Source: Escherichia coli (GTDB taxonomy: Bacteria > Pseudomonadota > Gammaproteobacteria > Enterobacterales > Enterobacteriaceae). Taken from it: a DNA stretch of 10,116 nt. The notes below the pieces were generated by a model. The model did not search any database, had not been told where the DNA came from, and saw nothing but the letters and a program-made list of their open reading frames with translations. The stretch is from assembly GCF_003334305.1 (NCBI RefSeq), contig NZ_QOWS01000043.1; one strand, 5' to 3'. Below are positions 85 through 5,334 of this stretch, in pieces. Both the position numbers and the translations under genes were made by a program. The number at the start of each line of letters is the position of its first letter. Positions within the stretch are counted from its first letter, which is position 1.

Positions 85-160
85 AGGGGCGTAGTTCAAT
101 TGGTAGAGCACCGGTCTCCAAAACCGGGTGTTGGGAGTTCGAGTCTCTCCGCCCCTGCCA
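85..160 (+). tRNA. trpT: tRNA-Trp (anticodon CCA)
   Basis: 76-nt sequence aggggcgtagttcaattggtagagcaccggtctccaaaaccgggtgttgggagttcgagtctctccgcccctgcca matches E. coli tRNA-Trp as recalled. Anticodon CCA at 118-120, T-arm gttcgagtc, encoded CCA end. An 8-nt spacer (77-84) separates it from tRNA-Asp. Confidence 0.9.
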
Positions 161-1162: not shown

Positions 1163-1179
1163 CTAATACTCCGCGCCAT
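1163..1179. promoter_or_regulatory. Candidate maoS site (17-bp cis element of the MaoP/maoS Ori macrodomain system) within the hdfR-maoP divergent promoter region
   Basis: Exact string ctaatactccgcgccat in the hdfR-maoP intergenic region. I recall this 17-mer as the published maoS sequence and this as its reported location. The identity is from memory and needs checking against the literature. Confidence 0.55.
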
Positions 1180-1576: not shown

Positions 1577-3097
1577 TTATGTCAGTAGTTTTTGCAGATG
1601 GATGAGCAAACGGTCAATCGCACGATAGCTAACTGCCTCCTGCAAATGCTGACGTGTGATAATGTCAGACTGATCAATATCAGCAATGGTTCGTGCAACT
1701 TTCAATAACCGCTGCCAGGCACGAATCGATAACCCCAGATGGATCAGTGTTCCTTCCAACCACATCGCATCTTCGCTCTCAAGTTTGCAGAATTGGCGTA
1801 TTTCCGGACTATCCAGCCAGGCATTCAGTTTATTCTGCCGCTTAAATTGGCGCTCTCTGGCGGCCATTACGCGTTGTTTAACGGTGGCGCTGCTTTCTCC
1901 CGGCACTACCGTTTTACTCAAAATGCCGGGGGGTGGTAATGGGATCTCCAGTGAGAGATCGAAGCGGTCGAGAAAGGGCCCCGAGAGCCGGTTGAGATAA
2001 CGTAATGTCTGTTCTGGCGTGCAGCGGTTATGGTTTCCCTGATAATGTCCGGTAGGGCTGGGATTCATCGCCGCAACAAGCTGGAAACGGGCTGGATAGG
2101 TTATTTTGGCTCGTGTGCGTGAAAGATGGATCTGCCCGGATTCAATCGGCTCTCGCAAGGCATCCAGTGTACGCCGTTCAAATTCAGGTAGCTCATCAAG
2201 AAAAAGCACGCCGTTATGCGCCAACGAAATTTCACCTGGCCCTGGAATTGCACCACCGCCCACCATCGCAGTTAACGACGCACTGTGATGCGGTGAGCGG
2301 AACGGGCGCTGCCGCCATTGTTTTTGTACTGATTCAGCATTTACCAGACTTAATATCGCAGCGCTCTCCAGTGCCTCTTCATTGCTTAAATCTGGCAACA
2401 GGCCATTAATACGGCTGGCGAGCATTGTTTTACCTGTTCCCGGCGGCCCAATCAGTAAAAGGTTGTGCCCGCCAGCGGCGGTAATTTCCAGTCCTCGCTT
2501 TCCTTGCTCCTGACCGACAACATCACTGAGATCATGTTGTAGCGCCCGGGATACTGCATCAGTTGGTTTCGGGCGTTCGAGAGCGTGCTTACCTTCCAGA
2601 AACGCACAGACAGCCTGCAGATGATCGGCTATCAGGCATCCTTCACCGTTAATTAGCCCCACTTCATCTTCGTTATCTTTCGCGACGATAATTTTTCTGC
2701 CCGACTTAATAGCTTCAGTTGCACTGGAGATTGCGCCGGGAACGCCACGCAGAGCGCCTGTAAGCGCCAGTTCTCCGACTAATTCATATTCATCTAACTT
2801 ATTGGCTGTAAGCTGTTCTGAGGCCGCCAGCAACGCAATGGCGATAGGTAAATCATATCGTCCCCCTTCTTTTGGCAGATCGGCTGGAGCCAGGTTGATG
2901 GTGATTTTTTTCGCCGGATATTCATATCCGCTATTGATAATGGCGCTGCGCACGCGATCGCGAGCTTCTTTTACAGTTGTTTCTGGTAAGCCCACCATCG
3001 TTAAGCCGGGTAGACCTTTACTGATATGTACCTCAACAGTGATTGGGGGCGCATTTACTCCCAGGGCTGCGCGGGTATGAACAATTGACAGTGACAT
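1577..3097 (-). CDS. comM: ComM / YifB, Mg-chelatase-like AAA+ ATPase (competence protein ComM homolog), 506 aa from the downstream ATG
   Basis: Long minus-strand ORF with Walker A (LLLIGPPGTGKTM) and Walker B (VLFLDELPEF) motifs and an N-terminal Lon-protease-like region. The six-frame track starts at the ATG at 3127 (516 aa), but the in-frame ATG at 3095-3097 is preceded on the coding strand by AAGGAGGG with about a 4-nt spacer, a near-consensus Shine-Dalgarno. It gives the 506-aa product beginning MSLSIVHTRA, which matches my recollection of YifB. Confidence 0.85.
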   Translation of the reverse strand: MSLSIVHTRAALGVNAPPITVEVHISKGLPGLTMVGLPETTVKEARDRVRSAIINSGYEYPAKKITINLAPADLPKEGGRYDLPIAIALLAASEQLTANKLDEYELVGELALTGALRGVPGAISSATEAIKSGRKIIVAKDNEDEVGLINGEGCLIADHLQAVCAFLEGKHALERPKPTDAVSRALQHDLSDVVGQEQGKRGLEITAAGGHNLLLIGPPGTGKTMLASRINGLLPDLSNEEALESAAILSLVNAESVQKQWRQRPFRSPHHSASLTAMVGGGAIPGPGEISLAHNGVLFLDELPEFERRTLDALREPIESGQIHLSRTRAKITYPARFQLVAAMNPSPTGHYQGNHNRCTPEQTLRYLNRLSGPFLDRFDLSLEIPLPPPGILSKTVVPGESSATVKQRVMAARERQFKRQNKLNAWLDSPEIRQFCKLESEDAMWLEGTLIHLGLSIRAWQRLLKVARTIADIDQSDIITRQHLQEAVSYRAIDRLLIHLQKLLT

Positions 3098-3304
3098 AAG
3101 CCCTCCTTGAGTCACTATTATGTGCATAAGATATCGCTGCTGTAGCCCGCTAATTCGTGAATTTTAGTGGCTGATTCCTGTTTATTTGTGCAAGTGAAGT
3201 TGAGTTGTTCTGGCGGTGGAATGATGCTCGCAAAAATGCAGCGGACAAAGGATGAACTACGAGGAAGGGAACAACATTCATACTGAAATTGAATTTTTTT
3301 CACT

Positions 3305-3380
3305 CACTATTTTCTTTTTAAAAAACAACAATTTCTATTGAAATTATTAAACGCATCATAAAAATCGGCCAAAAAATATC
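3305..3380 (+). promoter_or_regulatory. AT-rich upstream activating region of the ilv operon promoter (UP-element / IHF-binding region expected here)
   Basis: About 80% A+T stretch with several A5-6 tracts (3320-3325, 3360-3364, 3371-3376) immediately upstream of the candidate core promoter. Published work on ilvGMEDA describes an upstream AT-rich activating region with an IHF site and a non-productive upstream promoter. Exact site boundaries cannot be fixed from sequence alone. Confidence 0.4.
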
Positions 3381-3421
3381 TTGTGCTATTCGCAAAATCT
3401 ATGGTAACTCTTTAGGCATTC
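3381..3421 (+). promoter_or_regulatory. Candidate core promoter and transcription start region for ilvLXGMEDA
   Basis: Candidate -35 TTGTGC (3381-3386) and candidate -10 hexamers in 3400-3410 (tatggt / taactc). A start near 3420 would give a leader of about 180 nt ending at the attenuator T-run (3596-3603), consistent with the recalled leader length. The hexamer assignment is uncertain. Confidence 0.35.
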
Positions 3422-3449
3422 CTTCGAACAAGATGCAAGAAAAGACAAA

Positions 3450-3548
3450 ATGACAGCCCTTCTACGAGTGATTAGCCTGGTCGTGATTAGCGTGGTGGTG
3501 ATTATTATCCCACCGTGCGGGGCTGCACTTGGACGAGGAAAGGCTTAG
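3450..3548 (+). CDS. ilvL: ilv operon leader peptide (32 aa): MTALLRVISLVVISVVVIIIPPCGAALGRGKA
   Basis: ATG at 3450 through TAG at 3546-3548. 15 of 32 codons encode Leu (4), Val (6) or Ile (5), the hallmark of the branched-chain amino acid attenuation leader. An intrinsic terminator lies immediately downstream. Confidence 0.9.
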   Translation: MTALLRVISLVVISVVVIIIPPCGAALGRGKA

Positions 3549-3569
3549 AGATCAAGCCTTAACGAACTA

Positions 3570-3603
3570 AGACCCCCGCACCGAAAGGTCCGGGGGTTTT
3601 TTT
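3570..3603 (+). terminator. ilv attenuator (Rho-independent terminator of the leader transcript)
   Basis: GC-rich stem acccccg (3571-3577) / cgggggt (3590-3596) followed by 8 consecutive T (3596-3603), 22 nt after the ilvL stop codon. Confidence 0.85.
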
Positions 3604-3634
3604 TGACCTTAAAAACATAACCGAGGAGCAGACA

Positions 3635-3685
3635 ATGAATAACAGCACAAAATTCTGTTTCTCAAGATTCAGGACGGGGAACTAA
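3635..3685 (+). CDS. ilvX: Small ORF ilvX (16 aa: [16 protein letters not shown]) between the attenuator and ilvG
   Basis: ATG at 3635-3637 preceded by GAGGAG (3624-3629), stop TAA at 3683-3685, two nt before the ilvG ATG. It matches the position and sequence of the described E. coli small protein IlvX as I recall it. Translation cannot be judged from sequence alone. Confidence 0.55.
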
Positions 3686-3687
3686 CT

Positions 3688-5334
3688 ATGAATGGCGCAC
3701 AGTGGGTGGTACATGCGTTGCGGGCACAGGGTGTGAACACCGTTTTCGGTTATCCGGGTGGCGCAATTATGCCGGTTTACGATGCATTGTATGACGGCGG
3801 CGTGGAGCACTTGCTGTGCCGACATGAGCAGGGTGCGGCAATGGCGGCTATCGGTTATGCCCGTGCTACCGGCAAAACTGGCGTATGTATCGCCACGTCT
3901 GGTCCGGGCGCAACCAACCTGATAACCGGGCTTGCGGACGCACTGTTAGATTCTATCCCTGTTGTTGCCATCACCGGTCAAGTGTCCGCACCGTTTATCG
4001 GCACGGACGCATTTCAGGAAGTGGATGTCCTGGGATTGTCGTTAGCCTGTACCAAGCACAGCTTTCTGGTGCAGTCGCTGGAAGAGTTGCCGCGCATTAT
4101 GGCTGAAGCATTCGACGTTGCCAGCTCAGGTCGTCCTGGTCCGGTTCTGGTCGATATCCCAAAAGATATCCAGCTAGCCAGCGGTGACCTGGAACCGTGG
4201 TTCACCACCGTTGAAAACGAAGTGACTTTCCCACATGCCGAAGTTGAGCAAGCGCGCCAGATGCTGGCAAAAGCGCAAAAACCGATGCTGTACGTTGGTG
4301 GTGGCGTGGGTATGGCGCAGGCAGTTCCTGCTTTACGAGAATTTCTCGCTACCACAAAAATGCCTGCCACCTGCACGCTGAAAGGGCTGGGCGCAGTTGA
4401 AGCAGATTATCCGTACTATCTGGGCATGCTGGGAATGCATGGCACCAAAGCGGCGAACTTCGCGGTGCAGGAGTGCGACTTGCTGATCGCCGTGGGTGCA
4501 CGTTTTGATGACCGGGTGACCGGCAAACTGAACACCTTCGCACCACACGCCAGTGTTATCCATATGGATATCGACCCGGCAGAAATGAACAAGCTGCGTC
4601 AGGCACATGTGGCATTACAAGGTGATTTAAATGCTCTGTTACCAGCATTACAGCAGCCGTTAAATATCAATGACTGGCAGCTACACTGCGCGCAGCTGCG
4701 TGATGAACATGCCTGGCGTTACGACCATCCCGGTGACGCTATCTACGCGCCATTGTTGTTAAAACAACTGTCGGATCGTAAACCTGCGGATTGCGTCGTG
4801 ACCACAGATGTGGGGCAGCACCAGATGTGGGCCGCGCAGCACATCGCACACACTCGCCCGGAAAATTTCATTACCTCCAGCGGCTTAGGCACCATGGGTT
4901 TCGGTTTACCAGCGGCGGTTGGCGCACAAGTCGCACGACCGAACGATACTGTCGTCTGTATCTCCGGTGACGGCTCTTTCATGATGAATGTGCAAGAGCT
5001 GGGCACCGTAAAACGCAAGCAGTTACCGTTGAAAATCGTCTTACTCGATAACCAACGGTTAGGGATGGTTCGACAATGGCAGCAACTGTTTTTTCAGGAA
5101 CGATACAGCGAAACCACCCTTACTGATAACCCCGATTTCCTCATGTTAGCCAGCGCCTTCGGCATCCCTGGCCAACACATCACCCGTAAAGACCAGGTTG
5201 AAGCGGCACTCGACACCATGCTGAACAGTGATGGGCCATACCTGCTTCATGTCTCAATCGACGAACTTGAGAACGTCTGGCCGCTGGTGCCGCCTGGCGC
5301 CAGTAATTCAGAAATGTTGGAGAAATTATCATGA
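3688..5334 (+). CDS. ilvG: Acetolactate synthase II (AHAS II) large catalytic subunit, intact 548 aa
   Basis: Uninterrupted 548-aa ORF starting [25 protein letters not shown] with a thiamine-diphosphate binding motif ([14 protein letters not shown]...LDN). GGGGA Shine-Dalgarno-like sequence 8 nt upstream. Followed by ilvM with a 4-nt overlap. Confidence 0.95.

Follow-up and report, generated by a model that had tools for sequence, protein, structure and literature searches.

The comM (yifB) gene on the minus strand of this stretch of Escherichia coli DNA is, with a probability of about 0.95, translated from the ATG at 3097–3095 by Shine-Dalgarno (SD)-led initiation into a protein of 506 aa, and the in-frame ATG at 3127–3125, 10 codons further upstream, is not a start. 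SD pairing, conservation, homology boundaries, annotation and tetracycline-inhibited ribosome profiling (TetRP) agree on the downstream codon, which is also the one that the original prediction had favored. This start is already known, both from the current RefSeq annotation and from published profiling support. The significance of the analysis lies in annotation quality only; biologically, the start is a standard one. Choosing the longest ORF extends ComM/YifB by 10 spurious residues, MHIIVTQGGL, a mistake also made in the 2006 annotation of K-12. For cloning, tagging, or modelling of the N-terminal domain, the 506 aa form of E. coli ComM should be used.

Start region and ribosome-binding signals

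The window, meaning the whole 10,116-nucleotide stretch that was analysed, is the E. coli hdfR-maoP-yifB(comM)-ilvLXGMEDA region. The tRNAs are followed by hdfR, maoP, and yifB (= comM, on the minus strand), and next come ilvL-ilvX-ilvG-ilvM-ilvE-ilvD-ilvA. A 901-nt query around the comM start matched 5,426 of 5,426 complete E. coli genomes, with an identity of 100% to strain 503025 and 98.9% to K-12 MG1655.

Positions 3127..3095 of the minus strand read ATGCACATAATAGTGACTCAAGGAGGGCTTATG, the coding-strand string that had been described, with its two ATGs at 3127 and 3097. From the ATG at 3127–3125 the codons run CAC ATA ATA GTG ACT CAA GGA GGG CTT, followed by the ATG at 3097–3095, and codons 7–9 of the long form (CAA GGA GGG) are themselves the SD, just as the original prediction had it. 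Reading from ATG 3097 gives a short form of 506 aa, with a CDS at 1577..3097 on the minus strand (506 codons plus stop) that agrees with the RefSeq CDS coordinates, NCBIfam, and Pfam; reading from ATG 3127 opens a 516-codon ORF and gives a long form of 516 aa. The 516 aa entry 1577..3127 in the mechanical ORF list arises from its rule of opening each frame at the first start codon that follows a stop, and a longest-ORF rule picks ATG 3127 because no stop happens to fall between 3127 and 3097.

SD strength was scored as the duplex energy of the 20 nt upstream of a candidate start paired with the 3′ end of 16S rRNA. For ATG 3097 this energy is −11.9 kcal/mol, with seven consecutive pairs over AAGGAGG (3108–3102, minus strand), a value that just 0.31% of the window's 960 ATG/GTG/TTG triplets, counted over both strands, can match. 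For the remaining genes in the window, the SD duplexes range from −6.4 to −10.0 kcal/mol. The gap to the ATG is 4 bases when counted from GGAGG and 5 from GGAG. A 4-base gap falls at the short end of the effective range and agrees with the spacing of about 4–9 nt taken for a canonical SD-led start; the claim of a strong SD at ideal spacing thus holds for the strength, which is in the top 0.3%, and was slightly generous for the spacing. The same spacing occurs in 50 of 81 orthologues and is the conserved one. Our scoring also bears out that the first ATG is without a recognizable ribosome-binding site: ATG 3127 scores −1.5 kcal/mol, at the 69th percentile of the window's start-like triplets, and has no ribosome-binding signal of its own. 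The in-frame GTG between the two ATGs (3115–3113, minus strand) was considered and rejected as a start codon, given that its duplex energy is +0.6 kcal/mol, that the sole SD lies downstream of it, and that it is not conserved outside Escherichia. SD strength by itself is no proof of start-site choice.

In the mechanism we propose, the anti-SD of the 30S subunit would pair with AAGGAGG, and this pairing would put the ATG four bases downstream into the P site. The product would be a protein of 506 aa starting MSLSIVHTRA. ATG 3127 is an Escherichia-specific triplet, lying on this reading in promoter/5′-leader DNA.

Conservation of the start region among orthologues

We compared 80 species-level orthologous loci, ranging from Escherichia to Pantoea, with counts given out of 81 sequences; the genera include Escherichia, Citrobacter, Salmonella, Trabulsiella, Leclercia, Enterobacter, Lelliottia, Kosakonia, Siccibacter, Erwinia, Pantoea, and Mixta. 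In tblastn searches, the match begins at query residue 1 in all 80 loci, and this codon served as the anchor for the comparison. The downstream ATG is invariant (81/81), the N-terminus reads MSLS(I/V)V(H/Y)TRA with changes mostly at third positions, and GGAG precedes the ATG in all sequences except one (80/81), columns −9 to −6 being conserved at 74–94%. Column entropies by codon position are 0.54/0.19/1.67 bits over the first 19 codons after this ATG, and upstream of the SD, over six codon-equivalents, they are flat at 1.77/1.79/1.72 bits. Three-base periodicity sets in at offset 0, the downstream ATG.

Four of the 81 sequences, all from Escherichia, carry an ATG at codon −10; in E. albertii this codon is GTG, and the ‘residues’ there differ. 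In 39 of the 81 sequences the 10 upstream codons are interrupted by an in-frame stop, so that the extension cannot belong to the conserved protein. Given the flat entropy, the rarity of the ATG at −10, and these stops, we conclude that the upstream codons are not conserved as protein; the alignment of N-termini that had been suggested as a check thus showed no visible protein-level constraint on the 10 codons across the 81 sequences, by entropy or by stops. Inside Escherichia these codons are open and the ATG is kept in four of five lineages (E. coli and three cryptic ones). Neither observation counts for much, because divergence within the genus is too low.

Homology boundaries and protein family

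Profile and structure comparisons place the protein boundary at the same codon. The NCBIfam equivalog NF007365 aligns through positions 1–506 of 506 with residues 11–516 of the long form (1143.4 bits versus a cut-off of 530). The 506 aa given in the original prediction as the size of YifB/ComM is the length of the family profile, and it is the length both here and in K-12 yifB. The Pfam domains, in the 516 aa numbering, are ChlI (PF13541, 31–152), Mg_chelatase (PF01078, 199–396), and Mg_chelatase_C (PF13335, 410–502). Residues 1–497 of the Legionella ComM structure 8rxd, chain F (509 aa; E = 2e-141), align with long-form residues 11–503; the chain begins MSL, and its residue 1 aligns with the Met at window position 3097. 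To judge from these matches, the comM product is a YifB family Mg-chelatase-like AAA+ ATPase (NF007365 / TIGR00368).

ComM is a hexameric branch-migration helicase. The protein encoded here and ComM of naturally transformable Gram-negative bacteria (8rxd) have full-length homology and a three-domain architecture common to both. E. coli is not known as naturally transformable, unlike the bacteria in which ComM is described (PMC6728893). The E. coli protein is assigned to ComM by sequence, and its helicase/branch-migration activity is putative.

Annotation history and published initiation data

The RefSeq/PGAP CDS start maps to window position 3097 in both strain 503025 and K-12. In NC_000913.3, yifB occupies 3948449..3949969 (NP_418214.2). 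The window and K-12 yifB (b3765, NP_418214.2 = comM) share the gene, its hdfR-maoP-yifB-ilvL context, and the annotated start; the sole difference is the mechanical 516 aa call, which matches the superseded 2006 annotation.

The history of this start can be followed in Table S3 of a TetRP study (Nakahigashi et al., 2016; PMC4909307). The 2006 start of yifB, 3948022 in U00096.2, is the upstream ATG, and the 2014 start, 3947992, corresponds to 3949969 in U00096.3, a shift of 30 nt. The gene was among 95 whose start moved between U00096.2 (2006) and U00096.3 (2014) and which were checked by TetRP (PMC4909307). By the automatic TetRP criterion, yifB was scored as ‘no change’. The authors inspected by hand 27 re-annotated genes that had been missed automatically, of which 12 had reads solely at the 2014 site, and they blamed the misses of the automatic criterion on variability among the triplicate samples (PMC4909307). 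Manual inspection of yifB is entered as ‘3. 2014’, for which the legend reads ‘signal at 2014 initiation site’ (PMC4909307). Ribosome profiling had been named in advance as a way to check the prediction, and the published signal lies at the 2014 site, that is, at the downstream ATG. The TetRP support is thus limited to a manual inspection of a weakly expressed gene, which the automatic criterion had not picked up, and the category codes of Table S3 are not fully in line with the table's own legend (PMC4909307).

The two forms would be told apart by their N-terminal peptides, which are MHIIVTQGGLMSLSIVHTR (or its Met-processed version) for the long form and SLSIVHTR (Met removed) for the short form. 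We looked for an N-terminal peptide of ComM in the TRAINSPOTTER N-terminomics supplements, which have no yifB/comM entry. An exact-sequence look-up found the 506 aa form on at least 1000 contigs and the 516 aa form on 1. The latter survives as the legacy GenBank record EFO57436.1 (E. coli MS 145-7). The protein cluster also has members of 500 and 502 aa, which points to further start-call variants or to differences between strains.

Candidate promoter elements upstream of comM

The MAFFT alignment of the 81 regions contains four conserved non-coding islands upstream of the gene, all given here on the minus strand: the SD; a −10-like hexamer, CATAAT, at 3122–3117; and, within 3161..3187, CtAAAA(T) at about 3167–3161 and AAAtAAaCaGGAA at about 3187–3175. 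Among orthologues the hexamer appears as CATAAT, CATAGT, or CATACT. We required A2 and T6 together with at least 4/6 matches to TATAAT at −27 to −24 from the ATG. By this definition the box is present, at a fixed distance from the SD, in 72 of 81 species, whereas shuffled sequences average 20 and reach 31 at most; the canonical extended −10 motif TGn accompanies it in 17 species versus about 1 in shuffles. The Escherichia TG is shifted upstream by one base, to a non-canonical spacing; it is the TG of the upstream ATG and aligns with the TG that precedes the box in other genera.

This positional conservation suggests that the CATAAT box is probably the −10 element of a proximal comM promoter with a very short leader. 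Were the box to function as a −10, transcripts would start at about 3113–3108 with a leader of about 13–16 nt, and the upstream ATG would be off that mRNA. A sigma-70 scan did not call the box, which is without a −35 element. The tables of Cappable-seq, of the dRNA-seq of Romero et al., and of Kim et al. (2012) contain no mapped yifB transcription start site (TSS) at the relevant coordinates, and SMRT-Cappable-seq has only a maoP transcript at the locus. For yifB, Shimada (2014) gives just a predicted hexamer pair, TTGGCC-18-AATAAT. We rejected this pair as a promoter candidate: it is the same weak consensus match that our own scan returned (3372..3343), and the number of matches there is not above that in shuffles.

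Further upstream, a CRP-S-like site, TGCGAGCATCATTCCA, lies at 3232–3217 on the minus strand. Its half-sites, TGCGA and TTCCA (N6 here), match the core TGCGA-N6-TCGCA of the 22-bp CRP-S site at 8 of 10 positions, a match that is at chance level for a single window. About 36 of the 81 sequences keep the half-sites, with a variable spacer and a centre at −124 to −127 relative to the ATG. The candidate site is consistent with Sxy/CRP control of comM, a reported member of the CRP-S regulon (PMC1635313). Another CRP-S candidate, AGCGA-N6-ATGCA, lies over the upstream ATG (3138–3123); it was discarded because so short a distance to the gene start does not suit an activating site and because E. albertii and other genera do not share its second half-site. 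Within the island at 3167–3161, TAAAAT could be an alternative −10, serving a CRP-S-dependent promoter whose predicted TSS would lie about 70 nt downstream of the site centre.

A tentative model, which we regard as possible but somewhat less probable than its opposite, combines these elements. The upstream ATG would be a promoter by-product, and comM would be expressed from a −35-independent proximal promoter with an SD leader of about 13–16 nt plus a distal CRP-S/Sxy promoter (at about −126). Such a two-promoter arrangement, if true, would explain basal (e.g. UV-inducible) versus competence-regulon expression, and the mis-annotated start would then be absent from the main message.

Weighing the alternative starts

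The promoter elements bear on whether both ATGs might be used, ATG 3097 serving as the main start and ATG 3127 yielding a minor 516 aa isoform in Escherichia from mRNAs initiated further upstream, for instance at a CRP-S-dependent distal promoter. No stop separates the two ATGs, the upstream one is present in E. coli and the three cryptic Escherichia lineages, the conserved CRP-S-like site suggests that some transcripts begin upstream of 3127, and dual starts have been reported for other genes (Nakahigashi et al., 2016; PMC4909307). Any message begun at a CRP-S promoter would carry the upstream ATG, and only the SD would then decide which start is used, so that a minor extended isoform keeps a small probability. 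Against this stand the lack of an SD at ATG 3127 and the two consecutive ATA codons that follow it, ATA being a rare codon that occurs only four times in the whole 506-codon CDS. The GTG and altered residues of E. albertii, together with the missing protein-level constraint, also argue against a second product, and TetRP places yifB in the class ‘2014 site’, not in a class of multiple sites (PMC4909307). Taken together, these observations make dual initiation quite improbable.

That ATG 3127 is instead the true and only start, giving a 516 aa protein, has next to no probability. In its favor, this ATG comes first in the open frame, was the annotated start in U00096.2, and is carried by EFO57436.1; the comparative, homology-boundary, SD, and TetRP evidence is all contrary, and the proposal is effectively refuted. 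Initiation at ATG 3097 is the reading that accounts for the invariance of this codon, the onset of periodicity, the alignment with residue 1 of 8rxd, and the TetRP signal.

Other features of the window

Several further features were observed around comM. Two tRNA genes at 1–73 and 85–157 (+), at the end of the rrnC operon, are aspT, which is truncated by the window edge, and trpT (names per NC_000913.3). The 17-nt maoS site CTAATACTCCGCGCCAT (Valens et al., 2016) has an exact copy at 1163–1179 (+), in the hdfR-maoP intergenic region. A match to Rfam family RF02744 (Rev39_5p_UTR; 157 bits) spans 3379–3668 (+), over the ilvL/ilvX leader-attenuator of the ilv operon. The ilvG gene at 3688–5334 (+) is intact here and encodes 548 aa; in K-12 it is a well-known frameshifted pseudogene. 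Finally, a 61-codon ORF with a GTG start at 3118–3303 (−) runs in another frame across the comM promoter region. It overlies variable intergenic sequence and a few of the conserved non-coding islands, and is almost certainly spurious.
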